Below are positions 1,784 through 17,848 of a stretch of DNA of 17,848 bases, piece after piece (within the stretch, counting starts at the first letter, position 1; every line of letters starts with the position of its first letter). The notes beneath the pieces were generated by a model that was given only the letters and a program-made list of their open reading frames with translations, had not been told where the DNA came from and searched no databases. The stretch comes from a virus, in UHGV virus genome UHGV-0189394. The stretch is one strand, 5' to 3'. The translations under genes were made by a program, and so were the position numbers.

Positions 1784-2254
1784 ATGCTGAAACTGAATTC
1801 ATTCCGCGATGCGTTAACAGCACATTGCCGGTGGTGTAAAGCCAGTCCGGAAAAATTCACGGTATTCATTGAATCCGGCGGCATTGAAACCACCGGAGAA
1901 TCCCCCTCATTCCTGTACCGCTACAATCTGGTGTTGTTCGTCATGGACTTCACCGAAAGCATCGACAACATCATGCTGCCGGTCATGGCGTGGCTGTACA
2001 GGAATCAGCCGGATCTTCTTCTCAATCCGGAGAAAAACAAAAGCATCAAATTTTCGACGGCCATCAACGATGATGACAGCGCTGACATTCTTCTGGAAAT
2101 CCCGGTATGGGAGCGCGTGATTGTACGCCGCAACGATGACGGCACGGTGAGCGCGGAGCATATCGGTGAGCCACCGGTAAGCCGGGCACTGGAAGCGTGG
2201 CGCGTGGTGTTTGAAGACATGACCTGGAAAACCGCAGAAGAGGCCGGTGCATGA
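1784..2254 (+). CDS. R: tail completion protein, P2 gpR-like
   Basis: 156-aa ORF directly upstream of the S-like and V genes; size and sequence character (e.g. MLPVMAWLYRNQPDLLLNPE) match my recollection of the P2 gpR family. Stop overlaps the next start (ATGA). Confidence 0.7.
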   Translation: MLKLNSFRDALTAHCRWCKASPEKFTVFIESGGIETTGESPSFLYRYNLVLFVMDFTESIDNIMLPVMAWLYRNQPDLLLNPEKNKSIKFSTAINDDDSADILLEIPVWERVIVRRNDDGTVSAEHIGEPPVSRALEAWRVVFEDMTWKTAEEAGA

Positions 2255-2886
2255 GAGACGTTCACGAACTGGATGCCATCTTTCAGGACATTCTTTCAGG
2301 CCTGTCAGCTGCCGGAATTCAGCGCACGGCAATGAGCGTGGGTAAGGCCATCCGGCAGGTACAGACAAAACGCATCAGAAGCCAGGTATCCCCGGACGGT
2401 CAGCCCTGGGAGAAACGAAAACGCCGGATACTGCGCATACAAAAAGGCGTGAAGTTCATCTGGAAAGACGGACAGGTAAGAAACCTGAAAAACTGGAGCA
2501 CATCCCGGGGACGGTTCGGGCGGAAAATTACCGGCTACGATACCGACGCCGGGGGTATCCGGACGTTTTACAAGGCAGATATCGAAGACTATCTGGAAAT
2601 TAACACGCAGCGCGTCGCAGCAAGAGCATCACGTCGCTCACCCATGTTCGAAAAACTGAGAACACCGCGCTTTCTGAAAATCACCCCCGACCCGAGCGGC
2701 GTCAGTGTCGGTTTTCAGGGGCGGGCCGCGCGCATTGCCAGAGTGCACCAGTTCGGTGAGGTGAGCCTTGTCTCGCCCGGAAACGCCACGAAATACCCCG
2801 TGCGCGAACTGCTGGGCCTGAACGCTAAAGACAAACAGCAAATCACGGAAACTGTGATTGCCGGACTGGGGAAAGCTGCGAAATGA
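2251..2886 (+). CDS. S: virion morphogenesis / tail completion protein, P2 gpS-like (extended, 211 aa)
   Basis: Contains QVSPDGQPWEKRK, VHQFGE and VRELLGLNAKD blocks resembling gpS-family motifs; about 60 aa longer than P2 gpS as I recall it. Translationally coupled to R and V. Confidence 0.7.
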   Translation: MRDVHELDAIFQDILSGLSAAGIQRTAMSVGKAIRQVQTKRIRSQVSPDGQPWEKRKRRILRIQKGVKFIWKDGQVRNLKNWSTSRGRFGRKITGYDTDAGGIRTFYKADIEDYLEINTQRVAARASRRSPMFEKLRTPRFLKITPDPSGVSVGFQGRAARIARVHQFGEVSLVSPGNATKYPVRELLGLNAKDKQQITETVIAGLGKAAK

Positions 2887-3464
2887 ACATTGAGCTTATG
2901 CGATTGCTGGAAAACATTGTGCGGATTGGTGTGGTCACGGAAATCAACACCGACACCTGGGAGGTTCGGGTGCAGAGTGGCGGACTGACCACCAACTGGA
3001 TCAGATGGAACAGCGGACGGGCCGGAAAATTCAGAATCTGGATCCCGCCATCACCGGGTGAGCAGGTGCTTCTCCTTTGCCCCGGTGGCAATCCGGAAAC
3101 CGCCGTCAGCGCGGGCAGTCTGTACAGTAATGACAATCCACCACCGGGCGCACTGGAAAACGAAATGGTCATCACCGCACCGGACGGTGCGGAATTTCGC
3201 TATAACGCACAGGAAGGCGACCTGACGGCAAAAGGTATCAAAACCGCAACCATTACGGCCAGAACCAGCATCACGCTGGACACGCCAAGGGTGGAATGCA
3301 CGCAGCACCTGAAGGCAAAAACATTCGAGCTGACCGAAGGCGGGAAGATGACCGGCAACATCACGCACACCGGCGGAAGCCTGACCTCCAACGGTATCAC
3401 GGTGCACAGCCACGTACACGGCGGAGTCAGAAGCGGCGGAGACACAAGCGGAGGTCCACAGTGA
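2883..3464 (+). CDS. V: baseplate assembly protein V (central spike)
   Basis: 193-aa product with GEQVLLLCPGGNPETAV, TLDTPRVECT and THTGGSLTSNGITVHSHVH blocks closely resembling P2 gpV; position directly before W. Confidence 0.9.
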   Translation: MNIELMRLLENIVRIGVVTEINTDTWEVRVQSGGLTTNWIRWNSGRAGKFRIWIPPSPGEQVLLLCPGGNPETAVSAGSLYSNDNPPPGALENEMVITAPDGAEFRYNAQEGDLTAKGIKTATITARTSITLDTPRVECTQHLKAKTFELTEGGKMTGNITHTGGSLTSNGITVHSHVHGGVRSGGDTSGGPQ

Positions 3465-3829
3465 GCATTGACTACACCGGCATGAATCCGCACGGCACGG
3501 GAACCATTTCAGGGCACGAACACCTGAAGAACGCCATCAGGGACATCATCATGACACCTGTCGGAACACGCGTCATGAGACGGGACTATGGCAGCCTGGT
3601 TCCCGGACTCATCGACAGCCCGATGAATGATGTAACCCGCCTTCAGTGCATGAGTGCAGCCGTAATAGCAATCAGCCGCTGGGAGCCGCGCGTGGCCGTG
3701 AGCGCCGTTGATGTGGCGTGGGATAAGCAGGGGCGGGCCATGCTGTCCCTGAACTGCCTGATTGTAAACACCATGGAAAAACTGGAGTTTTCTGTAGAGA
3801 TGGGAGGAAAGGCAGATGCCGGCCATTGA
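3461..3829 (+). CDS. W: baseplate wedge protein W (gp25-like)
   Basis: Frame is open from GTG 3461, which overlaps the V stop (GTGA); an alternative ATG lies at 3482. Product has the TPVGTRVMRRDYGSL block characteristic of gpW/gp25-like proteins. Confidence 0.8.
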   Translation: MSIDYTGMNPHGTGTISGHEHLKNAIRDIIMTPVGTRVMRRDYGSLVPGLIDSPMNDVTRLQCMSAAVIAISRWEPRVAVSAVDVAWDKQGRAMLSLNCLIVNTMEKLEFSVEMGGKADAGH

Positions 3830-4712
3830 TTTATCTGAACTGCCAAAACCGAACGTTATCGAAACGCTGGATTACGAGGTGATACTGGCAGAAACAAAGG
3901 CATTTATCGTCAGCCTTTACCCGGCAGAGATACAGGAAGCCGTCACTGCCGCAATGATGCTGGAATCGGAACCCCTGAACATCATTGCCCAGAGCATGGC
4001 TTTCCGTGAGCTTATTATCCGTCAGAGAATTAACGACGCTGCGGGTGCCATTCTGCTGAGCCATGCGGTATCCACAGACCTGGATCATGTTGCCGCGAAC
4101 CTGAACACCGCTCGCCTGGTCATCACACCGGCAACAGAGACCAGTGATGCCGTTATGGAGAGCGACACCGCCCTGCGTCTTCGGGCGCAGTCTGCCTTTG
4201 ACGGGCTAAGTGTCGCCGGTCCAACAGGCGCATATGAATATTTTGCCCGAAGCGTCAGTGGCAGCATTGCCGACGTGAGGGCAACAAGCCCATCCCCAGC
4301 CCAGGTCACCGTGGCGGTATTATCCACAGAAGGCGACGGTACCGCTTCCGAAGACCTGATCGAAAAGGTCAGAACCGCACTGAGTGCGGAGGACGTCAGA
4401 CCAGTGGGAGACAGGCTTACCGTAAAGAGCGCTGAAATCATCAGCTATCAGATCGACGCCAGACTCTACTTTTATCCGGGCCCGGAATCCGAGCCCATTC
4501 TGAATGCAGCCAAAAGCAACCTGGAAGCGTGGATCAGAGAGCAGAGAAAAATTGGTCGCGATGTTGCGCTTTCCGCCATCATGGCCGTCCTGCATGTGCA
4601 GGGCGTTCAGCGGGTGGAGCTGGTGAAGCCACAACAGAACATTACCGTGAGCGATACGCAGTCGGCATATTGCACTTCATTCACCGTCAGCACCGGGGGA
4701 ACCAATGAATAA
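3816..4712 (+). CDS. J: baseplate assembly protein J
   Basis: 298-aa ORF, size and position match P2 gpJ (~302 aa); overlaps W by 14 nt and I by 8 nt. Confidence 0.85.
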   Translation: MPAIDLSELPKPNVIETLDYEVILAETKAFIVSLYPAEIQEAVTAAMMLESEPLNIIAQSMAFRELIIRQRINDAAGAILLSHAVSTDLDHVAANLNTARLVITPATETSDAVMESDTALRLRAQSAFDGLSVAGPTGAYEYFARSVSGSIADVRATSPSPAQVTVAVLSTEGDGTASEDLIEKVRTALSAEDVRPVGDRLTVKSAEIISYQIDARLYFYPGPESEPILNAAKSNLEAWIREQRKIGRDVALSAIMAVLHVQGVQRVELVKPQQNITVSDTQSAYCTSFTVSTGGTNE

Positions 4713-5238
4713 AGACACTCTGCTTCCCCCTTCCGCCACAGAATTCATACGCAACGCAGAGCGTGGCAGTGAGCGGTTGATGGCGCTGCCCGTCGGTATT
4801 CGTCATCTCTGGGATCCTGACACATGTCCCGTGCAGTTGCTGCCTTATCTGGCATGGGCGCTGTCGGTTGACCGATGGGATCAAAACTGGCCGGAGGAAA
4901 CCAAACGGCAGGTCATTCGCGATTCATGGGATATTCACCGGCATAAAGGCACCATCAAAGCCATTCGCCGGGTTGTTGAGCCATTTGGTTATGTGATCAG
5001 GGTAACCGAATGGTGGGAAACCAACGAAACACCGGGAACATTCCGGCTGGATATCGGCGTACTGGATATCGGGATCACCGAAGAAATGTACAGGGAAGTT
5101 GAACGCCTGGTAGCCGACGCACGTCCGGTCAGTCGCCATCTGATCGGTCTGAACATCATTCAGGACGTACCGGGTTACATGTACACAGGCGGCATCGCCT
5201 ACGACGGCGACATTATTACTGTTTATCCTTCGGAGTAG
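4705..5238 (+). CDS. I: tail/baseplate protein I
   Basis: 177-aa ORF between J and the tail-fibre gene, matching P2 gpI size (~176 aa) and position. Confidence 0.85.
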
Positions 5239-5242
5239 CGCT

Positions 5243-8164
5243 ATGACCGTAAAATTCAAAACCGTAATCACTAAGGACGGTGCAGCAAAAATCGCCGCAG
5301 CAACCGGCACACCGGGAACAAAAATCAACATCACGCACATGGCCGTTGGCGATGGCGACGGCAACTTACCCACGCCTTCATCATCCCAGAAAGCGCTCAT
5401 TCGTGAGGTATGGCGAGGCACACCAAACAAAGTAAGCCCCAACCCCAAAAACCCTGCTGAACTCATTGCTGAACTGGTGATCCCTCCTGAAGCGGGAGGA
5501 TTCTGGATGCGTGAAATGGGCTTGTTCGATGAGGCGGGAACGCTGATTGCCGTATCCAACATGGCAGAAACCTACAAACCGCTACTGTCTGAAGGTTCCG
5601 GCAGGGCGATGACATGCCGCATGGTCCTCATCATCAGCGATGTGAGTGCCGTAAACATCTCCGTTGACAACACCACCATCATGGCAACACAGGATTACGT
5701 CGATGACAAAATCGCTGAACATGAACAGTCGCGCCGACATCCCGACGCCACACTGACCCAGAAAGGCTTCACCCAACTGGACAGCTCGGTAAACAGTAGC
5801 AGTGAGGCGAAAGCTGCAACACCAAAAGCAGTAAAAACACTGAACGATACAAAGGCCCCGCTGAACAGCCCTAAGCTGACCGGAACACCGACTGCCCCCA
5901 CGGCAGCAAAAGGGGTCAACAACACCCAGATAGCGACAACCGCTTACGTGATGGCAGCAATCGCTAATTTAGTGGACTCATCACCGGACGCCCTGAATAC
6001 GCTGAACGAGCTGGCGCAGGCGCTGGGAGATGACCCAAACTTTTCAGCCACCATGACCAACGCACTGGCGGGAAAACAGCCCCTTGATGCAACGCTGACG
6101 GCGATTGCCGCGCTGACCACGGCAGCCGATAAACTGCCTTACTTCACCGGAAACGACAAGGCGGCACTGGCAACACTGACGGAAGTTGGCCGGGACATCC
6201 TCGGAAAGGCAGCCGTCAGTGACGTCATCGCGTATCTGGGGCTCACGAACACCATCACCCAGGCATCAGGCGCACTTCAGAAAGCGCAGAACGGAAAAGA
6301 CATCCCGGACACCGAAGCGTTCCTGGAGAACGTCGGCGTCACCAGTCAGACGTTCATGAAACATAATGGAGAACTGCCTGAAGAGGCTGACCTGAATACC
6401 TATGGCCCGGTTGCTGCCACTCTGGGCACGTGGGGGAAAGCAACGTCAACCAATGCAACGATCGCTAAAAATTTCCCGGAAGACGGTGCGGTGGGCTTTC
6501 TCGAAGTCTTTACTGGAGGAGCTTTTAACGGAACGCAGCGATACACCTGCCGTAACGGTGGAATTTATATCCGGACCCTGACCGCCAGATGGAACGGAAA
6601 AGATGGCCCATGGAGCGCATGGCGTAACGTTCAGATGACCAGCAGAACCCTGAGTCAGGATATTGATCTTGACACCCTGGGGGGAACCGAACATCTGGGG
6701 GTATGGCGTAACGCAGGCGCAGCCAATGCTTCATTCACCAGAAACTACCCGGAAGAAGGTAGTTATGCCCAGGGCGTTCTTGAGGTTATGGAAGGTGGCA
6801 GCTATTCACGCACCCAGCGGTACACTACAGCCAAAGGGAATATGTACATCCGCAGCCTGGCTGCAACATGGGATGCATCTGCCCCGAAGTGGGGAGAATG
6901 GAATAGCGTCGGACATCAACCTGACGGCGCATGGCACGATGGCGACCTGAACACCATGAAAACGCCGGGTATTTACAGCACGACCAACAAGGCCAAAAAC
7001 GGCCCTATGACGGTTACGGACGGGGATAACCTGACAGGGGTCCTTGAGGTCATAAAACGACTGAGTGGTACCGCCTTTATACAGCGCTATACCACCACAG
7101 GAACGGCGACATTAACACGCGGACGTTCTTTTGAAAGAACCTTCAGCGGTGAAGCCTGGACAGAATGGCGGGAAATCTATAACTCGTTCAGCCTGCCGCA
7201 GAATCTGGGCATCGGTGGCGCAGTGGCAAAACTATCCAGTCTGGACTGGCAGACCTACGACTTTGTGCCGGGCAGTCTGATAACCGTGCGGCTTGATAAC
7301 ATGACCAACATTCCCGACGGTATGGACTGGGGCGTCATTGATGGCAACCTGATAAACATCGCGGTTGGTCCGAGTGATGATTCCGGTACGGGGCGCTCAA
7401 TGCATGTATGGCGCAGCACTGTGAGTAAAGCGAATTACCGCTTTTTTATGGTGCGTATTTCAGGAAATCCGGGAAGCCGCACGATCACAACAAGACGAGT
7501 ACCAATCATTGACGAAGCCCAGACATGGGGCGCGAAACAGACATTCAGTGCTGGCCTTTCAGGTGAATTATCCGGCAACGCCTCCACTGCAACAAAATTA
7601 AAAACCGGGCGTAAGATTAACGGCGTCACGTTTGATGGCACCGCCAATATAGAGGCATTCCCTCCGGGGGTTCCCTTACCATGGCCATCAGACACCCCGC
7701 CTTCAGGCTATGCCATTATGCAGGGGCAAACCTTCGACAAGGCAAAATACCCGAAACTTGCCATCGCCTACCCGTCAGGAAAACTGCCTGATATGCGGGG
7801 ATGGACAATCAAAGGGAAACCAGCCAGCGGTCGGGCGGTATTATCACAGGAGCAGGACGGTATTAAATCGCATACCCATACGGCCAGCGTATCAAATACC
7901 GATCTGGGGTCGAAAACGACCAGTTCATCAGGCTCAGGATCAGGCACCGCATCAGTAATACAGGGGACAGCATCCCCTGAAGGTAGCGGAGACTGGACGG
8001 CGTACGGTCCAGGAAGTGGGTCAACAATTACTGTAACTATGCCCAGTCACACCCACACCGTGGCACTGGGCTCACACGGGCACGGCGTGACCGTTAACGC
8101 CACAGGCAACACAGAAAACACCGTGAAAAATATTGCGTTTAACTACATCGTGAGGCTTGCATAA
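5243..8164 (+). CDS. H: tail fibre protein (mosaic: P2 gpH-like N-terminus, repeat-containing shaft, lambda Stf / Mu S-like receptor-binding tip)
   Basis: 973-aa ORF with GGAG 8 nt upstream. N-terminal ~150 aa is P2 H-like; C-terminus has GWTIKGK...HTHTA...[16 protein letters not shown]...[12 protein letters not shown], resembling the conserved tip of lambda Stf-type side tail fibres. Confidence 0.9.
6388..7183 (+). repeat. three tandem protein-level repeats (~85-90 aa each) inside the tail-fibre gene
   Basis: Units begin near nt 6388 (DLNTYGP...[29 protein letters not shown]...W..W), 6659 (DIDLDTLGG...[29 protein letters not shown]...W..W) and 6939 ([11 protein letters not shown]...GVLEVIKRL...QRYTTTG...W..W). 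Nucleotide sequences have diverged; unit boundaries are approximate. Confidence 0.6.
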
Positions 8165-8910
8165 TGACCTTTACAATGAAAGACGAAGCCAGAACGCTAC
8201 GGGTATTTCATATTCACCCGGAAACCAGCGAACTGACCGGCGAAAGCGACGTATATATTCCACCGCATACCGGGCTGCCCGCTGGTTGCACAACTACCGA
8301 ACCGCCACATATCCCGGAAGGGTTCGCGGCACTTTTTGATGAGGTTCGCCAGCGCTGGGAACTCGCCGAAGATCACCGGGGGAAAGTGGTGTGGGAGACA
8401 ACATCCGGGAATGAAATCACAATAACTGAAATCGGACCGCTGCCTGAAAACACAACAACCGTGGCCCCGCCAACAGCCGCAGGAAAGTTTATTGATGGCG
8501 AATGGAAAGAAGATCGCAGTCTGGCAATCAGTATAAAAAATAACGAGATAAACGAATGGCGTAACGCCATGGAATCTGCAAATTACGTTTTCACGTTCAA
8601 TGGCCGCAACTGGGATTACGGAAAAGAAACCCAGTCCCGACTGGAACCATCAGTGGCAGCCGCAAAGTCCGGGTTATTACCGGAGGGATTTTTCTGGACG
8701 GATGCCGATAACAACGATATCCCGGTTACCGCAGATGAATTGATCGCACTGAGCAATGCTGCATCTGCTGCAATGTTTACCAAAGGAATGGAAATACATA
8801 TCCGGCAACGGGAAATGAAAAAAGCCATAGAGGAATTACAGGACCCCGGAGAAATCATGGCATACCCGGTGGGATGGAAAACAGACACCGCAGAAGGTGA
8901 CGACGAGTGA
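8164..8910 (+). CDS. tfa: tail fibre assembly protein / chaperone (lambda Tfa-like N-terminal domain, non-canonical C-terminal domain)
   Basis: Start overlaps the H stop (TAATGA). N-terminal ~100 aa (GESDVYIPPHTGLPAG, EDHRGKVVWETTSGNEITITEIGPLPEN) closely resembles lambda Tfa; the C-terminal ~140 aa does not resemble the usual Tfa C-terminus as I recall it. Confidence 0.75.
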   Translation: MTFTMKDEARTLRVFHIHPETSELTGESDVYIPPHTGLPAGCTTTEPPHIPEGFAALFDEVRQRWELAEDHRGKVVWETTSGNEITITEIGPLPENTTTVAPPTAAGKFIDGEWKEDRSLAISIKNNEINEWRNAMESANYVFTFNGRNWDYGKETQSRLEPSVAAAKSGLLPEGFFWTDADNNDIPVTADELIALSNAASAAMFTKGMEIHIRQREMKKAIEELQDPGEIMAYPVGWKTDTAEGDDE

Positions 8911-8915
8911 AAGTT

Positions 8916-8942
8916 AAAACGCCCGACTGACGGGCGTTTTTA
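8916..8942. terminator. bidirectional rho-independent terminator between convergent tfa and U
   Basis: aaaa-ACGCCCG-actga-CGGGCGT-ttttt: GC-rich 7-bp stem flanked by an A tract on one side and a T tract on the other, lying between the tfa stop (8910) and the U stop (8943). Confidence 0.8.
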
Positions 8943-9416
8943 TTATCTTACCAGTGTCAGTGCAGAGCTGACGCCGGACTTGATATTATTTGTCAGATCC
9001 CCCAGAGATGAAGACTGAAGGCGCTCACGCAAATCTTCATTCACACGCTCAAAGGTCACCGTAAACTCAATCTTCCGGGCCTTGCCATAGCGATCAAGCT
9101 CTGAGCGCGTGGTATTCAGCGCGGTGATAACGTACATACCGTAAATCTGACCAACACCATCAATCAGCGGCCAGGGACGCCCCGCATACGCCTGAGTTGT
9201 CAGCGCCGTGAGCGAGACTTCACCGCCTGTTATTTCCGGGTAGAGAAGACCGGAAAGCGTGATGGTATCGTCCCCCGCACCGATATACTGCCAGCTTGCC
9301 GAGCGGTTGATCCGCTCGTTCTTCACATGACGCCAGTTACGGGACTGCTGTATCTGCTGGTGTGGCAGCGTGCTTAACTGAAAAACAAACATGCCGTAAA
9401 TCATCATCATAACCAT
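8943..9416 (-). CDS. U: tail protein U
   Basis: Product (..MMMIYGMFVFQLSTLPHQQ...WPLIDGVGQIYGMYVI...KIEFTVTFERV) resembles P2 gpU. The track ORF starts at GTG 9419; I place the start at ATG 9416, but ATGs at 9410-9404 are equally possible (AGGAG lies just upstream). Confidence 0.8.
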   Translation of the reverse strand: MVMMMIYGMFVFQLSTLPHQQIQQSRNWRHVKNERINRSASWQYIGAGDDTITLSGLLYPEITGGEVSLTALTTQAYAGRPWPLIDGVGQIYGMYVITALNTTRSELDRYGKARKIEFTVTFERVNEDLRERLQSSSLGDLTNNIKSGVSSALTLVR

Positions 9417-9421
9417 CACTC

Positions 9422-12307
9422 CTAATCACGATCGCGGAAGCTGTTCATACCGCCGACTTGTCTGCGAATTTCTTCCCGTACCGCCTCCCCCACCATTCTG
9501 GCAAGGTCGCGCGGATTCTGCGTAACCACGTTATGAAGGTGAACGTGAATTTCCCCATCAAACACAGGCGACGGCGCAGGAGCAGATGCACGCGATGCAG
9601 CACCCGATGATGGAGAAACCGGTGCCCACTGCTTAACCTCCACAGGACGGGAAGTATCCGGGGAAACAACCGGAGACACGGGTGAAAGCGCTGGCACAGG
9701 CGGAAGTACGGGGGCAACAGTCGGTTCATTCCACTGCCCACGAACGGCCAGCGCGCGGGGGAGATTTTTAAACACGATATCGCCGGGGCCGATACGCTTA
9801 CGGGCTTCCTGAAGCATACCCGACGTATTGCCTTCGATACCCTTGAGCCTGCGAAGAACGCCACTGGTACCGTCATTTATTCCCGGAGGATTACCACCTT
9901 TGGGATCCACGCCCCCCGTATTACCGCCAGCCACCGGTTTGCCCTTCCCTGCGTTATCACTGGTGGCAGATTCAGCCATACTGGGGGACCATGCCTTCTG
10001 AACCATTTTTTTCTGAACAGGGTCCCACTCCCACATAACCGGAGCCTTTGCAACTGCCTCAGCACGATTTTTCGCCCGCTCAACTTCAGAGGGGAGCACG
10101 CCGAGTTTTTCCAGCACCCATGCCAGGCCGTCCATCAGAGCCTGAAGAGGAGTAAGCGCAAGCGATATCGCCCCGCTGAGCACGCGACCAAAAGTTTCCC
10201 CGGCCGATGTACACCGTTCAAGAGATTCATTACTGGCCTGAACCGGCGTGAGCAACCGGGTAAACCAGTCGAACACCGTGGACACCGCACCCGATACCAG
10301 ATCAAACAGCGGCGCAAACTGAGCAATACTTTCACGAACAGGCGCAAGGCCAGCCCACAGCGCCCGGAATGTGCCGAGCATGAAGGCCTTAACCTGTTCC
10401 CAGTGACGCCATATGAGCAGCGCCCCACCGGCAAGGGCAGCAATCACGAGACCAACAGGACTGAGAAGACCGGCAAGCGCCCCGCCCAGCACCGAAAACG
10501 CACCGGATACCATCCCCCACAGTGCCGGAAGTCCGGACAGGCGAAGGACAAGACCACTGACGCCGGTTGCAACGGAGGAAAGTCCGCCACCAAGAAGCGC
10601 AGAGCCAAGCTGAAGTTTTGCAAAAACCCCCGTCAGCAATCCACCACCGACAGACAGCGCGCCTATGGCCGTTGTGGCCGCAAGCACGCCCCCCACGGTA
10701 AGGGTCAGTGTGCGTACAAGCTGTGGGTTTTCCTGAATCCACGACCTGAAACGTTCGCCCACAGAAGCAACAGCCTGTACAAGCTCGCGGATATCATCAG
10801 TAACCAGCGACACAACATCACTGCGTATACCGGAGAAGACGCCAGACAGACGATCGGCATCACCGCCGAGGTTATCCCGCAGGACATCCCCCATTCGCCG
10901 GGCGGTTCCCTGAACCTGTCCCATACGGTCTGATACCGTTGCCAGCGAGCGGAGAAAATCCGGGATCTGGTCAACGGCAAGATCTTCAATGGGTGTGCCG
11001 AACAGCGCTATCGCCGCATTAGCCCGTTCTGCCGGATCCTGAATCTTCAGCAGCCCGGCAGCCGTTCGCTGCATTGCCTCGCGTGCAGCTGCGCCTCCGC
11101 TGGCAATCGCTGACGACATTCTTTCAGCGTTAAGGCCAATCAGCTCATAGGCCTCAACGCTTGCTTTGGACATATCCGAGCCGCGAATACTGAATTCCTT
11201 GACGGCATCGCCGGTTTTATCCAGGGCGAATTTTCCCTGCTGTGCCATGCTGACAAGCAGCGTCATGGTTTCAGAGCCGGAAAGCCCCATATTGCGGAAG
11301 TGCGTGGAATACTCATGCAGAATTTCAGGAAGTTCAGCGCGCATTTCGGCAGACATTTTCTGCATCCCTGCCGCCATCAGGTCGACCGCCTCCCCGGCAT
11401 TTGCGGCAAGCCCGTTTTTCAGCATGATTCCGGCAGCCTGAACCTGTTCAGCCACACTACCGCCGGTGACCTGAGCAAGATCCAGCGCCTGACGTGTCAC
11501 CCGTTCGAGCTCTTCAGTCCCCACCGTACCCAGTGCGCCAAGCGTGCTTTGCGTCGCAGCTGCCGCCTCTGAAATCATTGCGATATCCGTTGCGACACCT
11601 GACGCCCGGATATTCTGAATCATCCGGCTGTAGCGCTGCCCGTCCTCCGCACTGCCGCCACTCTGTGCCGCAATAAGCGCGCCCTGCCGTTGCTCTTCAA
11701 CAACAGGCGCAACCGCATGTCCGGCGGCGTACAGACCAGCACTGCCCGCCGCCATGGCAACCGCTCCGCGCTGGCTGAGTTTACCGGCGATATCCTGAAC
11801 ACGATCGTAACGTTGCTGTGCCTGCGTGACGCGCGCAAGCTGAGCCTGCTGGCGTTCAAGCTGATCGTTGTATTCCTGCGTTCGCCTGATTGCTTCCTCC
11901 ACAGCGCGGTTACTTCCGTCAGCCCGTATGCCGTGAGCTTCCAGTTCGCGACCGGCCTCCCGTAATCGGGACTGGTGAAGGGAGTACACAGTATTAAGGC
12001 GCTCAACCTTTGCGGTCAGCGCCCTGAGAGTTTCCTGCTGCTTTTCCGTCAGTGCTGTGCCGGTGCGCTGTGCTTCCTGAAGGCGCTGAAGTCGCGCACG
12101 CGCATCATTCAGACTGTTTTCAGTCGAAGCGACCTGCTGACGGGCACGGGAAAACGCATCACTGCTTCGCTGGAGTGACTTAAGCGCGTTCTGTGTGGAC
12201 GAAAGGGATTCAGAAAGCGCGCCGGTCATTTCCCGGGCGCGCCTGACAGGTTGGGTGAGACGGTCGACCGCAGTGAGGGCTACACGTATCTGGAGATTAT
12301 TACTCAT
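9422..12307 (-). CDS. T: tail tape measure protein T
   Basis: Long ORF between E/E' and U with an Ala/Gly-rich hydrophobic central region typical of tape measure proteins. Start placed at ATG 12307-12305 (MSNNLQ...), which overlaps the E' stop; the track's GTG at 12361 would lie inside E'. Confidence 0.85.
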   Translation of the reverse strand: MSNNLQIRVALTAVDRLTQPVRRAREMTGALSESLSSTQNALKSLQRSSDAFSRARQQVASTENSLNDARARLQRLQEAQRTGTALTEKQQETLRALTAKVERLNTVYSLHQSRLREAGRELEAHGIRADGSNRAVEEAIRRTQEYNDQLERQQAQLARVTQAQQRYDRVQDIAGKLSQRGAVAMAAGSAGLYAAGHAVAPVVEEQRQGALIAAQSGGSAEDGQRYSRMIQNIRASGVATDIAMISEAAAATQSTLGALGTVGTEELERVTRQALDLAQVTGGSVAEQVQAAGIMLKNGLAANAGEAVDLMAAGMQKMSAEMRAELPEILHEYSTHFRNMGLSGSETMTLLVSMAQQGKFALDKTGDAVKEFSIRGSDMSKASVEAYELIGLNAERMSSAIASGGAAAREAMQRTAAGLLKIQDPAERANAAIALFGTPIEDLAVDQIPDFLRSLATVSDRMGQVQGTARRMGDVLRDNLGGDADRLSGVFSGIRSDVVSLVTDDIRELVQAVASVGERFRSWIQENPQLVRTLTLTVGGVLAATTAIGALSVGGGLLTGVFAKLQLGSALLGGGLSSVATGVSGLVLRLSGLPALWGMVSGAFSVLGGALAGLLSPVGLVIAALAGGALLIWRHWEQVKAFMLGTFRALWAGLAPVRESIAQFAPLFDLVSGAVSTVFDWFTRLLTPVQASNESLERCTSAGETFGRVLSGAISLALTPLQALMDGLAWVLEKLGVLPSEVERAKNRAEAVAKAPVMWEWDPVQKKMVQKAWSPSMAESATSDNAGKGKPVAGGNTGGVDPKGGNPPGINDGTSGVLRRLKGIEGNTSGMLQEARKRIGPGDIVFKNLPRALAVRGQWNEPTVAPVLPPVPALSPVSPVVSPDTSRPVEVKQWAPVSPSSGAASRASAPAPSPVFDGEIHVHLHNVVTQNPRDLARMVGEAVREEIRRQVGGMNSFRDRD

Positions 12308-12847
12308 CGTTATGATTCCCGGTTCTGGCAGCCGCCCGCTCTCGCCAGGCAACAACCTCACCAGGACTCATACCGAATATCTCTGCGGGCGACCAGTTAA
12401 AGACAACAGCGATATCAGCGACAAGCTCTTCGATATCGTCAAACAGGAGACGAATTACATCACACCTGTATTCGTCTTTTTCTTGCCGGGCAAGGCCTTC
12501 GGCGAGAAAAAATACGTTGCCGCCGTGGAAAGCGCCCCGAAATCCTCCGTGCGCATGGTCGACAGTTCCGCTTCAGTAAGGCGGGGCTCTGTAACACGAG
12601 CGAGATAAACGCACATCGCGTTAAAGTTCAGGCTGTACAGGTGAGCCAGAGACAGACCACGCAGCGAACCACTCTGACGGGCACGCTCGCCAATCTTCAC
12701 ATGTGTAATAATCTGTTCGCCACGGATGACCGGGTTTGTTAATTCAATGAGCTCACCGTTATAGGCAACCTCATTACCATCAGCAGCATCGAAGTCGTCG
12801 ACGTTATCAGCACCGACAACCGGCATTTCGTTTTGTTTTTTTGACAT
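12300..12847 (-). CDS. tail assembly chaperone E+E' (predicted -1 programmed frameshift product)
   Basis: Slippery heptamer T TTT TTC on the - strand (12512-12506) at codons 112-114 of E. Hand translation of the -1 frame from 12506 gives a 68-codon extension (LAEGLARQEKDEYRCDVIRLLFDDIEELVADIAVVFNWSPAEIFGMSPGEVVAWRERAAARTGNHNDE) ending TAA 12302-12300, overlapping the T start. Confidence 0.6.
12455..12847 (-). CDS. E: tail assembly chaperone E
   Basis: 130-aa ORF with AGGAG 9 nt upstream of ATG 12847; sits between FII and T as in P2 and contains a slippery run near its 3' end. Confidence 0.8.
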   Translation of the reverse strand: MSKKQNEMPVVGADNVDDFDAADGNEVAYNGELIELTNPVIRGEQIITHVKIGERARQSGSLRGLSLAHLYSLNFNAMCVYLARVTEPRLTEAELSTMRTEDFGALSTAATYFFSPKALPGKKKTNTGVM

Positions 12848-12892
12848 TGTGAAATTCTCCTGGCGGCCACACGACCGCCGTCAGTCAGTTAA

Positions 12893-13405
12893 TCAGCCAA
12901 GCCCCAGCATGGAGCGGGTGCGGTCAGGCAACACATCCTTGCCATCAACGCGCCAGATGAAGTTCAGCACGTCGATTTCAATAACATCGCTGTTATCAAC
13001 GCTGAGCTTGTACCAGGTGCATTTCATCGCGTAGGTATGTTCGGTATCCTCACCCTGTTTGGCTTCGCCCTTGTCGATTTCGACAATGCGCCCACGGGCT
13101 TCAATATCGACGTACTCAATACCCTCTTCGGAATAGTATTCACCCGAGAAGCGCACACGTACCGCATCAATGCCTGCGGCATATTTGGCAAAGATGTGAC
13201 GGTCCACGCCGCCAACCGCAAAGGAGAGATCCAGCGCACCGTCATCAAGCCCGAGATCCACCGCCGCAGAGCCTGGCATACCCGCACCGCGATACGCTTC
13301 AGTCTTGCGGGTCAGCTTGGGCGGAGTGAAGGAGGTCACCTTACCCAGCTTGTTGTCACCGTCCACAAAGACGGTAAACACACGAAGTTTTTTTGGCACG
13401 GCCAT
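12893..13405 (-). CDS. FII: tail tube protein FII
   Basis: 170-aa ORF (P2 FII ~172 aa); its start overlaps the FI stop (TGATG). Confidence 0.9.
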   Translation of the reverse strand: MAVPKKLRVFTVFVDGDNKLGKVTSFTPPKLTRKTEAYRGAGMPGSAAVDLGLDDGALDLSFAVGGVDRHIFAKYAAGIDAVRVRFSGEYYSEEGIEYVDIEARGRIVEIDKGEAKQGEDTEHTYAMKCTWYKLSVDNSDVIEIDVLNFIWRVDGKDVLPDRTRSMLGLG

Positions 13406-14610
13406 CAGTTACCCCCTCCCAGAGATGCAAAAGCAGAACTGAAGAACTCGTCAGTAAACGTCTGATAGAGTTCCATGCACTCCATAGGCGGAACAGGGGT
13501 GTATTTGTAGCGAATACGCACAATACCCTGACGAAGGCTGGTTGTGTCGTTGTCGATGATATCGAACCAGCATTCCGCCCCGATAAGTTTTCCGGCCGTG
13601 ACCAGCGCATCCAGTTTTGCCTTGATAGCGCTTACCGCATCCTTCGCGTTGGCTGGCGTCAACGGTGAATCCACCACCTGAAGCTGTGCCTCTGCGATAC
13701 CGTCAGCCAGTTGTTGCGCCGTACGGGTGTACACCTCAAAGATATACTCCGCCGTTTCCGGCGTACGGTTCCCCCAGAAACGGAAGGAGCCGTCACCCTG
13801 GTGAATAATCGTCGTCACCTCACTGCTGTTCAGCGTGTTGGCATCGCTGTTTTCATCCTGAAGCGACCAGGAAACCGACGCAGAGATCCCGAGAACATTC
13901 TTCACAGGGATGTTTGAAAGAGAGCGATGCCAGCCCTGTTCGTGGTCGATTCGGGCACGAAGACCGCACGCATACGCCGCAGCCGGGAAAGTTTCGCTTT
14001 TACCGGATGCAGGGTTGAACGCCGTGAAATCAGGCCACAGAAGCATGATTTCACGCCCGGAAATCTTTTTGCGGAATGCAATGGCATCGGACGGTTTTGT
14101 ACATGCCGGGCAGCCGGAATACGCAAAAGCGCGCATTTTGCCCGCAATCGTCACCAGTGCCGCCGTAACGGCCTCGGACTCAAGACCGGGTGCCGCCAGG
14201 ATACGCGGACGACAGCCAATCCCTTCCATCTGTTCAGCAACCAGAAGAGCCTGCATCCCCGTGTAACTGCCATCAGCCTCCACGGTACCAATAACAAGCT
14301 GGTCCTGATTCTTCCCTCCCTCGGTGTCTTCCTCCTCTTTGGCTTCAGCGACACGCACGACGATAACGCGCGTGCTGACCTGATCGGAGATAGCCTTAAG
14401 AGATTTGTAGAGCGTCCCCTTTGTGCCAGCCTTACCCAGAACATTATTGACTCGTGTTAACAGCACCGGCGTGTCAAGCGGGAACTGCTCTTCATCAGCA
14501 TCATCTGCAACAGCAATAATCCCAATGACACTGGAATCAACGTCATTAATTGCCGTCACCAGATCGGTGTTTTCCCTGACGCGCACACCGTGAAATCGCG
14601 TTTCAGCCAT
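13405..14610 (-). CDS. FI: contractile tail sheath protein FI
   Basis: ~400-aa ORF resembling P2 gpFI. Start placed at ATG 14610 (MAETRFHGVRV..., GGTGA 5 nt upstream) rather than the track's ATG 14622, which has no RBS. Confidence 0.9.
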   Translation of the reverse strand: MAETRFHGVRVRENTDLVTAINDVDSSVIGIIAVADDADEEQFPLDTPVLLTRVNNVLGKAGTKGTLYKSLKAISDQVSTRVIVVRVAEAKEEEDTEGGKNQDQLVIGTVEADGSYTGMQALLVAEQMEGIGCRPRILAAPGLESEAVTAALVTIAGKMRAFAYSGCPACTKPSDAIAFRKKISGREIMLLWPDFTAFNPASGKSETFPAAAYACGLRARIDHEQGWHRSLSNIPVKNVLGISASVSWSLQDENSDANTLNSSEVTTIIHQGDGSFRFWGNRTPETAEYIFEVYTRTAQQLADGIAEAQLQVVDSPLTPANAKDAVSAIKAKLDALVTAGKLIGAECWFDIIDNDTTSLRQGIVRIRYKYTPVPPMECMELYQTFTDEFFSSAFASLGGGN

Positions 14611-14685
14611 ACGATTCACCATCAGTTATGTTTAAGCTCGCCTGAATAATCCACTACTGGCGCGCAGCCTTCACGTGATGCGGGT

Positions 14686-14763: not shown

Positions 14764-15909
14764 ATGAGTATCACTGAATCAGTAACACATCACATCAACA
14801 GCGCACTGGATGCAGCGGAAGACACAGTGAGGGTACCGGACTTCACTATCACACTGGAAGGAAAAGATGCCAGCCTGAAGAACATCACGCAGCGCATCAT
14901 GAGCCTCACCATGACAGACAACAGGGGTTTTGAGGCTGACAGGGTGACGCTGGAAATCGACGACGCCGACGGCGAGGTGGTACTTCCGGAACGTGGAACA
15001 AGATTATCTCTGTCTCTGGGATGGAAAGGTGAAAGCCTCACACACAAAGGGACGTTCGTTGTGGATGAAGTCGCGCACGACGGGCCACCGGATAAGCTGA
15101 CCATCTCCGCGAACAGCGCGGATTTTCGCGAAGAGTTTAACGTAAAACGCGAAGTCTCATGGCATGACGTGACCGTTGAGCGTGTGGTGTCTGCCATCGC
15201 CCACCGTTACGGACTGAAAGCCCAAATCAGCGAAATGTTGATGAACATCGAAATCGACCATGCCGACCAGACAGAGGAAAGTGATATGTCATTCCTAACG
15301 CGCATGGCTGACATGCTGGGTGCAATAGCCACCGTAAAAAACGGGTGCCTGCTGTTCATTCTGCCGGGTGGTGGTGTGACGGCCAGCGGTCACGCCCTCC
15401 CCTCTTTCTCCCTGACCCGTTCGGATGGCGACAGCCACCGGTTCCGCATTGCTGACAGACAGGCCTACACCGGGGTGAAGGCTTACTGGCTGGATTTAAA
15501 GTTCGGTCAGAAGAAGGCCGTGAACGTGAAAAAGCGAAACGCGCAAACCACGCAGAAGCCGGAGAAAAGCAGTTCACGGGAGGGCGGATACATGGAAGGC
15601 GCAGAAGGCAACGTGTATGTGCTGAGAAGAACCTACCCGAACGAAGAGGCCGCGCGTCGCGCAGCTGCCGCACGCTGGCAGCAACTTCAGCGGGGCGCAG
15701 CGGAATTCAGCATCACGCTGGCGCGCGGACGCGCCGACCTGTATCCGGAGATGCACGGCACGGTATCCGGGTTCAAGAGCGACATTGACAATCAGGACTG
15801 GATTATTTCGCGCATTGAACACGTCATCGACGACAGCGGCTTCACCACCAGACTGGAGCTGGAAGCAAAAATCGCAGACTGGATAGCAGAGAGTAACACG
15901 ACTGGCTAG
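14764..15909 (+). CDS. D: tail protein D (late control gene D family; gp27/VgrG-like baseplate hub)
   Basis: 381-aa ORF (P2 gpD ~387 aa) with a strong RBS, immediately upstream of ogr as in P2. Confidence 0.85.
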   Translation: MSITESVTHHINSALDAAEDTVRVPDFTITLEGKDASLKNITQRIMSLTMTDNRGFEADRVTLEIDDADGEVVLPERGTRLSLSLGWKGESLTHKGTFVVDEVAHDGPPDKLTISANSADFREEFNVKREVSWHDVTVERVVSAIAHRYGLKAQISEMLMNIEIDHADQTEESDMSFLTRMADMLGAIATVKNGCLLFILPGGGVTASGHALPSFSLTRSDGDSHRFRIADRQAYTGVKAYWLDLKFGQKKAVNVKKRNAQTTQKPEKSSSREGGYMEGAEGNVYVLRRTYPNEEAARRAAAARWQQLQRGAAEFSITLARGRADLYPEMHGTVSGFKSDIDNQDWIISRIEHVIDDSGFTTRLELEAKIADWIAESNTTG

Positions 15910-15950
15910 AATGAGCGCGAGCCCACCCCGTTTCAGCCAGGGGGACCATC

Positions 15951-16253
15951 ATGCATCCTTGCCCATACTGCGGAGCAAGCACCCGCACCAGAACAAGCCG
16001 CAACGCCAACGACACAGGAACAATCAGGGAGAAATACTATCAGTGCAACAACATTGAATGCAGCGCAACCTTTGTGACTCACGAGTTTGTCGTGAGAACC
16101 GTATGCCGTCCGCAACCCACCGAAGAACGGGGAATTATTCCCGCAGACGCCTTCAAAGCATGTCACCGGGGGAGGGATCAACTCAGCCTTCCCCTGGGCG
16201 ATTGCGCCTCCCAGTCAAAAACTGTACATTACGCGCGGGTGCCTTTCGGCTGA
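15951..16253 (+). CDS. ogr: Ogr/Delta-family zinc-finger late transcription activator
   Basis: N-terminus MHPCPYCGASTRTRTSRNANDTGTIREKYYQCNNIECSATF has the C-x2-C...C-x4-C arrangement and surrounding residues of P2 Ogr; GGGGGA RBS upstream. The 100-aa ORF is longer than P2 Ogr (72 aa). Confidence 0.8.
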   Translation: MHPCPYCGASTRTRTSRNANDTGTIREKYYQCNNIECSATFVTHEFVVRTVCRPQPTEERGIIPADAFKACHRGRDQLSLPLGDCASQSKTVHYARVPFG

Positions 16254-16852: not shown

Positions 16853-17848
16853 ATGATACAACCTATTTCCGGCCCTCCTCCTGGGCAACCACCAGGTCAG
16901 GGAGATAACCTGCCGTCTGGCGCGGGCAATCAGCCTTTATCCAGTCAGCAACGTACTTCGCTGGAAAGCTTAATGACGAAAGTGACCTCACTGACGCAAC
17001 AACAAAGAGCAGAACTGTGGGCGGGTATCAGGCACGATATTGGTCTGTCGGGAGATTCACCGCTGCTTTCGCGTCACTTCCCTGCCGCTGAGCATAATCT
17101 GGCGCAACGTCTGCTGGCCGCGCAAAAAAGCCATTCTGCCCGCCAGCTTTTAGCGCAATTAGGGGAGTATTTACGTCTGGGGAATAATCGTCAGGCGGTC
17201 ACGGATTATATCCGTCATAACTTTGGTCAGACGCCGCTGAATCAGCTCTCACCGGAGCAATTAAAAACCATTCTCACCCTGTTGCAGGAAGGGAAGATGG
17301 TTATTCCGCAACCACAGCAGCGCGAGGCGACCGACCGTCCTTTATTACCGGCGGAGCACAATGCGCTAAAACAGCTGGTGACCAAACTTGCGGCGGCAAC
17401 GGGGGAACCCAGCAAACAGATCTGGCAATCGATGCTGGAACTTTCCGGGGTGAAAGATGGCGAGTTAATTCCAGCGAAACTGTTTAACCATCTGGTGACC
17501 TGGTTGCAGGCGCGCCAGACGTTAAGCCAGCAAAATACGCCGACGCTGGAATCACTACAGATGGCGCTAAAACAACCTTTAGATGCCAGTGAACTGGCGG
17601 CGTTATCGGCATATATCCAGCAAAAATATGGCCTTTCTGCGCAATCATCGCTTTCTTCTGCCCAGGCCGAGGATATTCTTAATCAGCTTTATCAACGGCG
17701 GGTTAAAGGGATTGATCCGCGTGATATGCAACCGCTGCTTAATCCTTTTCCACCGATGATGGACACGTTGCAAAATATGGCAACGCGTCCCGCGCTGTGG
17801 ATACTGTTAGTCGCGATTATCCTGATGCTGGTCTGGCTGGTTCGTTAG
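16853..17848 (+). CDS. flk: flagellar regulator Flk-like protein (host chromosomal gene)
   Basis: 331-aa ORF with TAAGGA RBS; Pro/Gln-rich N-terminus (MIQPISGPPPGQPPGQ...) and a single C-terminal transmembrane anchor (ALWILLVAIILMLVWLVR), matching enterobacterial Flk as I recall it. Complete gene, stop TAG 17846-17848. Confidence 0.7.
   Translation: MIQPISGPPPGQPPGQGDNLPSGAGNQPLSSQQRTSLESLMTKVTSLTQQQRAELWAGIRHDIGLSGDSPLLSRHFPAAEHNLAQRLLAAQKSHSARQLLAQLGEYLRLGNNRQAVTDYIRHNFGQTPLNQLSPEQLKTILTLLQEGKMVIPQPQQREATDRPLLPAEHNALKQLVTKLAAATGEPSKQIWQSMLELSGVKDGELIPAKLFNHLVTWLQARQTLSQQNTPTLESLQMALKQPLDASELAALSAYIQQKYGLSAQSSLSSAQAEDILNQLYQRRVKGIDPRDMQPLLNPFPPMMDTLQNMATRPALWILLVAIILMLVWLVR

Follow-up and report, generated by a model that had tools for sequence, protein, structure and literature searches.

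The window analysed here is a stretch of 17,848 nucleotides (nt) from the viral genome UHGV-0189394 and represents the tail-gene region of a P2-like prophage. Within it, an open reading frame (ORF) at 8164-8910 on the + strand, which starts with ATG and comprises 248 amino acids (aa), combines a Caudo_TAP_N domain with a DUF4376 domain and probably encodes the assembly chaperone of the adjacent tail fibre. The original prediction, made from the DNA sequence alone, had described the product as a tail-fibre chaperone in which the N-terminal domain of lambda Tfa is joined to a different C-terminal domain, possibly swapped to match a mosaic fibre tip; the peptide quoted there is present in the translation of the ORF.

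Gene H and the two domains of the downstream ORF

The ORF lies immediately downstream of gene H (5243-8164, + strand) and in the same orientation, which is the placement of Tfa-type genes. The TAA stop codon of H overlaps the ATG of the ORF (TAATG at 8162-8166), and direct reading of the sequence places a Shine-Dalgarno-like GAGG at 8152-8155 on the + strand, 8 nt before the start codon. Downstream, a consensus scan detected a strong terminator-like, GC-rich hairpin at 8916-8940 with A/T runs on both sides and a 10-bp stem (AAAACGCCCGACTGACGGGCGTTTT). On its far side lies gpU (8943-9419, - strand; Pfam Phage_P2_GpU), which is convergent with the ORF. The nearest annotated relative is a prophage adjoining serS in E. 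coli SCU-172, in which the ORF region is 91.7% identical at the nucleotide level and the gene order is that of the window. Its homologue of the ORF, WP_016236121.1, is an intact protein of 248 aa in the same context, 93% identical and named "DUF4376 domain-containing protein".

Gene H, the presumed client of the chaperone, was assigned by Pfam and PHROG matches to the P2 gpH-type tail-fibre genes. Its 973-aa product carries the Pfam domains Phage_tail_fib (aa 1-151), Phage_fiber_2 and Collar (aa 809-856), and matches phrog_295 (“tail fiber protein”) with an E of 1.9e-212. By sequence comparison, the fibre tip, from the Collar domain to the C-terminus (7667-8161, + strand), is of the type found in lambda Stf and in H of the Peduovirus P24A7b, with 46% identity to lambda Stf (orf-314; E 2e-69) and 68% identity to the C-terminus of P24A7b H (E 7e-161); the final residues are identical among the three fibres.

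Two further features of this fibre were observed. Three tandem modules of ~90 aa occupy aa 376-655 (window 6368-7207), each with the motif (V/F)LEV...QRYT...W..W; repeats 1 and 2 are 42% identical (E 8e-23), while repeat 3 is more diverged. Ahead of the conserved tip, a His-rich HxH repeat region (aa ~890-950, window 7900-8100) is far shorter than in lambda Stf, P24A7b H and the SCU-172 fibre, with alignment gaps of 36-85 residues and a Ser/Gly-rich stretch instead. NCBIfam holds a family for neither the chaperone nor the fibre.

The N-terminal part of the ORF product (aa 1-117; 8164-8514, + strand) is a beta-rich domain of the lambda Tfa type, as indicated by BLASTP, phrog_105 and the AlphaFold2 model. 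BLASTP aligned residues 1-117 with the same residues of lambda Tfa at 45% identity (E 4e-37), an identity that relates it to a known Tfa N-terminal domain, and the alignment stops at residue 117. Identity to the Tfa of P24A7b is 48.7% over the same residues, and phrog_105 (“tail fiber assembly”) matches aa 1-134 only. The corresponding family PF28596, named Caudo_TAP_N in the newer Pfam release, is absent from the Pfam copy used to scan the ORF, and the assignment was made through close homologues, which carry it. The Tfa-like character that the original prediction had given to the first ~100 aa therefore stands, while its extent has to be enlarged to about residue 117, where both the BLASTP alignment and the modelled domain boundary (116/118) place the limit. 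Searching all PDB chains with the protein sequence and with a 76-sequence profile gave no match, including to TfaMu (5YVQ), because the lambda-type and Mu-type N-domains are not detectably similar. The PDB contains no structure of a DUF4376 domain.

Outside the window, the proteins P0121, P0126, P0133, P0176 and P0256 contain 2-9 tandem partial Caudo_TAP_N-like copies (query aa ~41-108), which precede either a Tfa C-domain or DUF4376; P0121, with 652 aa, has 9 copies.

The remainder of the product forms a DUF4376 module (aa 118-240; 8515-8883, + strand), which occupies the position of the canonical helical Tfa C-domain. DUF4376 (PF14301) was the only Pfam family found in the ORF, matching aa 125-227 (nt 8536-8844) with an E of 2.6e-18 and 66.9 bits against a gathering cut-off of 25, over profile positions 6-98 of 106; Caudo_TAP (PF02413), in comparison, gave no match at E <= 1. 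Lambda Tfa, P2 G, Mu U, Mu U' and P24A7b Tfa (175-194 aa) all match Caudo_TAP at E 1e-37 to 1e-43, and none of them matches DUF4376. The expectation of a Tfa-like N-terminus followed by a different C-terminus was thus correct, as was the guess that the latter would be a DUF-type phage domain.

The AlphaFold2 model, built from a 76-sequence alignment, has a mean predicted local distance difference test (pLDDT) score of 95 and a predicted template modelling (pTM) score of 0.79. Residues 10-116 are modelled as strands only, and the C-terminal part as a helix (118-138), a hairpin (141-152), a second helix (154-168), another hairpin (177-187), a long helix (190-224) and a pair of short helices. The modelled boundary between the domains (116/118) coincides with the break in sequence similarity at residue 117, and the C-domain modelled alone has the same structure, with a pLDDT of 95.2.

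An alternative to a different C-terminal module is that DUF4376 represents a highly diverged and expanded Tfa C-domain, so that divergence took place and no swap. Zampara et al. 2021 indeed equate DUF4376 with the C-terminus of TfaMu (PMC7882524), the two domains stand at the same position behind the same N-domains, presumably for the same use, and both have a Trp-containing motif near the C-terminus (GW... versus EWP..P). Profile comparison gave a different picture: hhalign between a 98-sequence DUF4376 alignment and a 34-sequence Tfa C-domain alignment returned probabilities of 0.1% (global) and 0.6% (local) with E 0.09-0.37, the hidden Markov models (HMMs) of the two domains yielded no cross-matches among 150 representatives, and Mu U, P2 G and lambda Tfa proved to be Caudo_TAP only. 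The Tfa C-domain is moreover a domain of ~75 aa with two helices (PMC9608196), against ~125 aa and the helix-hairpin succession described above for DUF4376. The hhalign and reciprocal HMM searches lead us to reject the relationship, which we regard as quite improbable, and leave the equation of Zampara et al. unsupported; the alignment of the C-terminal region to the Tfa C-domain that would have contradicted the original prediction was not obtained.

A relationship to intramolecular chaperone domains of the Peptidase_S74 type was also considered and found no support. Entries of T5 and K1F are absent from the top 50 Foldseek matches, hhalign against the C-terminus of T5 pb1 gave a probability of 0.4%, and Pfam detected no Peptidase_S74-like match in the ORF. 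Foldseek against predicted viral structures returned 39 matches at E <= 0.001, most of the named ones being "DUF4376 domain-containing protein", from myo-, sipho- and podoviruses of Gram-negative, Gram-positive and cyanobacterial hosts.

Modular combinations and the fibre tip

The combination of the two domains is ordinary: it occurs in prophages of Salmonella and E. coli by the hundreds, and is already catalogued in both Pfam and PHROGs. The profile of phrog_1807 matches the ORF over its full length (aa 2-239; profile positions 3-240 of 241; E 3e-68), while phrog_11571 and phrog_1141 match its C-half only. In a collection of 5.8 billion proteins, 974 clusters were found at E <= 0.001; the best 120 of these all have 237-253 aa, cover 94-100% of the query and carry PF14301 together with PF28596, and their source is mostly Salmonella enterica and E. 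coli. The idea of a swap peculiar to this locus is not compatible with these numbers.

A library of representatives at 50% identity gave 1427 matches at E <= 0.001, and the 150 best were classed by three local searches, with the N-half of the query, with its C-half and with the Tfa C-domain HMM. The lambda-type N-domain is followed by DUF4376 in 18 representatives and by the Tfa C-domain in 30; another 21, mostly short or fragmentary, contain the N-domain only, and DUF4376 stands behind other N-termini in 81. Junctions lie at about residues 117-125. Both C-modules were found together in none of the 150 proteins, i.e., they are mutually exclusive.

These data also bear on the possibility that the 248-aa frame is an artefact, in which a truncated Tfa gene was fused by a frameshift or an assembly error to a downstream DUF4376 gene. 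The separate relatives of the two halves and the drop in GC content from 0.53 to 0.48 between the N- and C-terminal parts would suit such an event. All 120 listed homologues, however, share the length and the domain pair, the same architecture occurs in 18 of the 150 cluster representatives, the SCU-172 homologue is intact in the same context, and the junction falls on a predicted structural domain boundary in a model with a pLDDT of 95. A fusion artefact is effectively refuted by the homologues, the SCU-172 context and the model boundary, and its probability is close to nil.

Base composition was compared along the gene as well. The GC content is 0.53 in the part coding for the N-domain, 0.48 in the DUF4376 part and 0.545 in the entire window, while the GC content at third codon positions does not differ between the two parts; the lower value in the DUF4376 part would fit a C-module of separate origin. 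Megablast of the region against phages and E. coli genomes retrieved two E. coli prophages at 91.7% identity, and otherwise only the 3' end of the fibre gene (8048-8179) is shared. With so little sharing at the DNA level beyond the fibre 3' end, nothing points to a recent swap where the N- and C-domains join.

The same C-modules are found behind a second type of N-domain. In the Stx phage phiSTEC1589-Stx1c, a protein of 223 aa encoded after the fibre gene has first 102 residues that are 41% identical to P2 G (E 8e-23), followed by a DUF4376 module that is 72% identical to that of the ORF (~70% for ORF-191 of P-Eib); L011 likewise combines a P2 G/Mu U-type N-domain with DUF4376. The P2 G/Mu U-type N-domain is thus joined to the Tfa C-domain in P2 and Mu and to DUF4376 in phiSTEC1589-Stx1c and L011. 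The lambda-type N-domain is joined to the Tfa C-domain in lambda and P24A7b and to DUF4376 in the window, in SCU-172, in an STM4199-like protein and in L009. The two N-domain types therefore combine freely with the two C-module types in a 2x2 manner.

In every context examined, the DUF4376 genes are downstream of fibre genes, and we compared which of the two modules follows the type of fibre tip. The tip of the window fibre is also present in lambda Stf, P24A7b H, the SCU-172 fibre, an STM4200-like Salmonella fibre and the first L009 fibre. A lambda-type N-domain is encoded downstream of every one of these fibres, whatever the C-module: lambda and P24A7b have the Tfa C-domain, the remaining ones DUF4376. 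Where DUF4376 stands behind a different N-domain, the fibre tip is different too: the tips of phiSTEC1589 and L011 have a weak P2 H/Mu S-like ending (E 0.002-0.04), and that of the second L009 pair is unrelated. Judged from these sequences, the N-domain tracks the fibre tip and DUF4376 does not. Because window-type tips keep the lambda-type N-domain with either C-module, the N-domain is the tip-matching part and DUF4376 the generic, interchangeable one. The suggestion that the swapped C-terminal domain is matched to the fibre tip is contradicted by this pattern, and also by the DUF4376 domain of 72% identity that stands behind an N-domain of the P2 G/Mu U type where the neighbouring fibre has an unrelated tip.

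It was observed in addition that L009 contains, at 2179-6977, two fibre/DUF4376-chaperone pairs in tandem within a single HP1/P2-like tail cluster. In the first pair, Caudo_TAP_N goes with a lambda-type tip; in the second, N-domain and tip are both different.

Conservation is high in the DUF4376 module, in which W132, R133, E137, W150, D151, R159, P173, F176, W178, T179, D185, G208, I211, H212, R214, Q215, R216, M218, K219 and W238 are conserved. Two blocks stand out, LPxGFFWTDADN (aa 172-183) and IHxRQRxMK (aa 211-219), and W178, Q215 and K219 are invariant in a 91-sequence DUF4376 alignment. Among the query and 13 diverse representatives with the same pair of domains, mean pairwise identity is 37% in the C-domain and 28% in the N-domain, and these 14 sequences contain no hypervariable block. 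A C-domain that is more conserved than the N-domain and has no hypervariable stretch speaks for a generic function and against a role as receptor-binding adhesin. Adhesin domains normally show the greatest variability.

The last point concerns the alternative that the product is a structural, distal part of the fibre, which remains on the virion tip and recognises the receptor like the T2-type gp38 adhesins, or which shields the tip as a transient cap, and would then be more than a catalytic assembly factor. We consider this unlikely, although several observations favour it. The matching PHROGs 1807, 11571 and 1141 are all labelled “tail fiber protein”, TfaMu remains on the Mu tip, V22 gp27 and A5 gp9 remain associated with their fibres, a role as a “cap” has been proposed (PMC10579305), and the near-invariant polar cluster of DUF4376 could form a binding site. 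Besides the conservation pattern just described, the identity of 72% between the DUF4376 domains of a P2-like prophage and a lambdoid Stx phage with unrelated tips is difficult to reconcile with receptor recognition. A structural role is nevertheless compatible with a chaperone role, and the two readings overlap.

Setting in the prophage

On the + strand, gpR, gpS, gpV, gpW, gpJ and gpI (1784-5238) are followed by gene H and the chaperone ORF. The - strand carries gpU, tape measure, gpE, tube and sheath genes at 8943-14622, and gpD and an ogr-like gene come next on the + strand after this block. The gpFI-FII-E-T-U block (8943-14622, - strand) is inverted with respect to V-W-J-I-H (1784-8910, + strand) and to gpD/ogr (14764-16253, + strand). 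P2 has a collinear order, unlike the window, while the E. coli SCU-172 prophage by serS has the layout of the window.

Two large ORFs run off the ends of the window. The one upstream of gpR (45-1421, + strand, off the left end) contains a region resembling sialate O-acetylesterases (SASA) as well as DUF6645, and its PHROG match is phrog_143, a family of unknown function; its SCU-172 homologue has 645 aa and lies after LysC. It may encode a carbohydrate esterase, either as cargo or as a virion component. The other (16853-17848, + strand, >331 aa, off the right end) follows the ogr-like gene and matches phrog_5825, also of unknown function, with a sub-threshold similarity to GemA; SCU-172 has hok/gef and serS at this position instead. 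An Rfam scan of the window gave no match.

Proposed function and known systems

Taken together, it is probable that the product of the ORF at 8164-8910 is the assembly chaperone of the adjacent gpH-type fibre, and that it is built from two exchangeable modules. We infer its chaperone activity from relationship and position. The N-domain (aa 1-117), as the presumed fibre-tip-binding module, would dock on the conserved C-terminal tip of the fibre. By analogy with the canonical Tfa C-domain, DUF4376 (aa 118-240) would serve the same generic function, i.e., oligomerisation or trimer nucleation: it would gather three chaperone-fibre pairs, and trimerisation of the fibre would begin at its C-terminal end. 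The chaperone may stay on the tip for some time after assembly.

The tracking of the tip by the N-domain agrees with the published model of Tfa, according to which fibre binding resides in a variable N-domain and trimerisation is driven by a conserved C-domain (North et al. 2019, as described in PMC9608196 and PMC7882524). Experiments on DUF4376 proteins of other phages favour a chaperone role. Active fibres of Alteromonas V22 require gp27, A5 gp9 binds the fibre of its own phage, and AlphaFold-Multimer models in the same work show trimeric helical cores with hairpins (PMC7289586, PMC10579305); for such proteins a transient “cap” role has been proposed (PMC10579305). The H-fibre of Campylobacter CJIE1 depends on a downstream DUF4376 gene (PMC7882524), and for phage F341 a hybrid chaperone has been described whose N- and C-parts differ in origin (PMC10877375).

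Several points weigh against a chaperone of this kind. The oligomerisation role of DUF4376 is suggested by positional analogy and by the published AlphaFold-Multimer models of distant relatives, and our literature search found no experiment on the ORF or on any other enterobacterial protein that pairs Caudo_TAP_N with DUF4376. The fibres of A5 function without gp9 (PMC10579305), and the word “chaperone” may therefore give an incomplete description. The PHROG label of the ORF's family is “tail fiber protein” and not “assembly”. Foldseek against the PDB with the full-length and C-domain models gave no match at E <= 0.001, including to TfaMu and intramolecular chaperone domains; the best match was archaeal prefoldin beta (E 0.15-0.3, probability 0.93, template modelling scores 0.45/0.58), a non-significant match that we treat as a purely topological resemblance. 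Finally, many polar residues of DUF4376 are near-invariant (H212, R214, Q215, R216, K219, D151 and D185), more than a simple helical bundle would need, which hints at a specific binding site.

These residues can also be accommodated by a bolder idea, to which we give little weight, namely that DUF4376 is an independently evolved and widely mobile organiser of fibre tips with a mechanism of its own, and not a passive stand-in for the Tfa domain. It might act, for example, as a prefoldin-like helix/hairpin holdase or as a transient cap, and the polar patch of W178, H212, R214, Q215, R216 and K219 would bind a common feature of unrelated tips or a host component. If this were true, phages would have a choice of two assembly modules, different in mechanism, for one and the same fibre.

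On the reading as a modular assembly chaperone, the annotations "DUF4376 domain-containing protein", "phage tail protein" and "tail fiber protein", where they stand on genes like this ORF, can be taken to denote the assembly chaperone of the neighbouring fibre. For the engineering of retargeted phages and tailocins, our results suggest that the N-domain must match the tip while the C-module is interchangeable. The 2x2 combinations of N-domains and C-modules represent a clean natural experiment on chaperone modularity, though an incremental one. The architecture was already known from Pfam and PHROGs, and DUF4376 fibre chaperones had been shown experimentally in other phages; the modest novelty here lies in the explicit 2x2 modularity and in the negative test of homology between DUF4376 and the Tfa C-domain.

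The closest canonical systems are lambda Tfa (orf-194) and the Peduovirus Tfa of the TfaP/TfaQ type (Caudo_TAP, PF02413), whose genes, like the ORF, directly follow a fibre gene with a window-type tip. They share 45-49% identity with the ORF over the N-terminal 117 residues and the same two-module logic, and they differ in size (175-194 aa against 248 aa) and in the helical C-domain that defines Caudo_TAP, which the ORF does not have. The enterobacterial family named “DUF4376 domain-containing protein”, in comparison, shows no essential difference: the ORF is a member of it, with the same full-length architecture and the same position after the fibre gene, at identities of 93% (E. coli WP_016236121.1), 52-58% (Salmonella clusters) and 32% (STM4199-like).

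ORF-191 of P-Eib prophages and the 223-aa “tail fiber protein” of phiSTEC1589-Stx1c (phrog_1141 / phrog_11571) also follow a fibre gene and have a DUF4376 domain ~70-72% identical to that of the ORF, but the phiSTEC1589-Stx1c protein has the P2 G/Mu U-type N-domain, stands next to a different tip and belongs to a lambdoid phage. V22 gp27, A5 gp9 and the Campylobacter CJIE1 and F341 chaperones resemble the ORF in having a C-terminal DUF4376 and a gene just downstream of a fibre or receptor-binding gene, while the N-terminal parts, fibres and hosts of the Alteromonas and Campylobacter proteins are unrelated; a requirement for the chaperone was demonstrated experimentally for V22 and CJIE1. The resemblance to intramolecular chaperones proposed for the Alteromonas DUF4376 proteins was not reproduced for the ORF by Foldseek. 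The Peptidase_S74 domains of T5 pb1 and the K1F endosialidase, to which a likeness was proposed in PMC10579305, have a helical core with beta-hairpins that aids the folding of trimeric fibres, and the DUF4376 of the ORF differs from them in being part of a separate polypeptide with no autoproteolysis site and no significant match.

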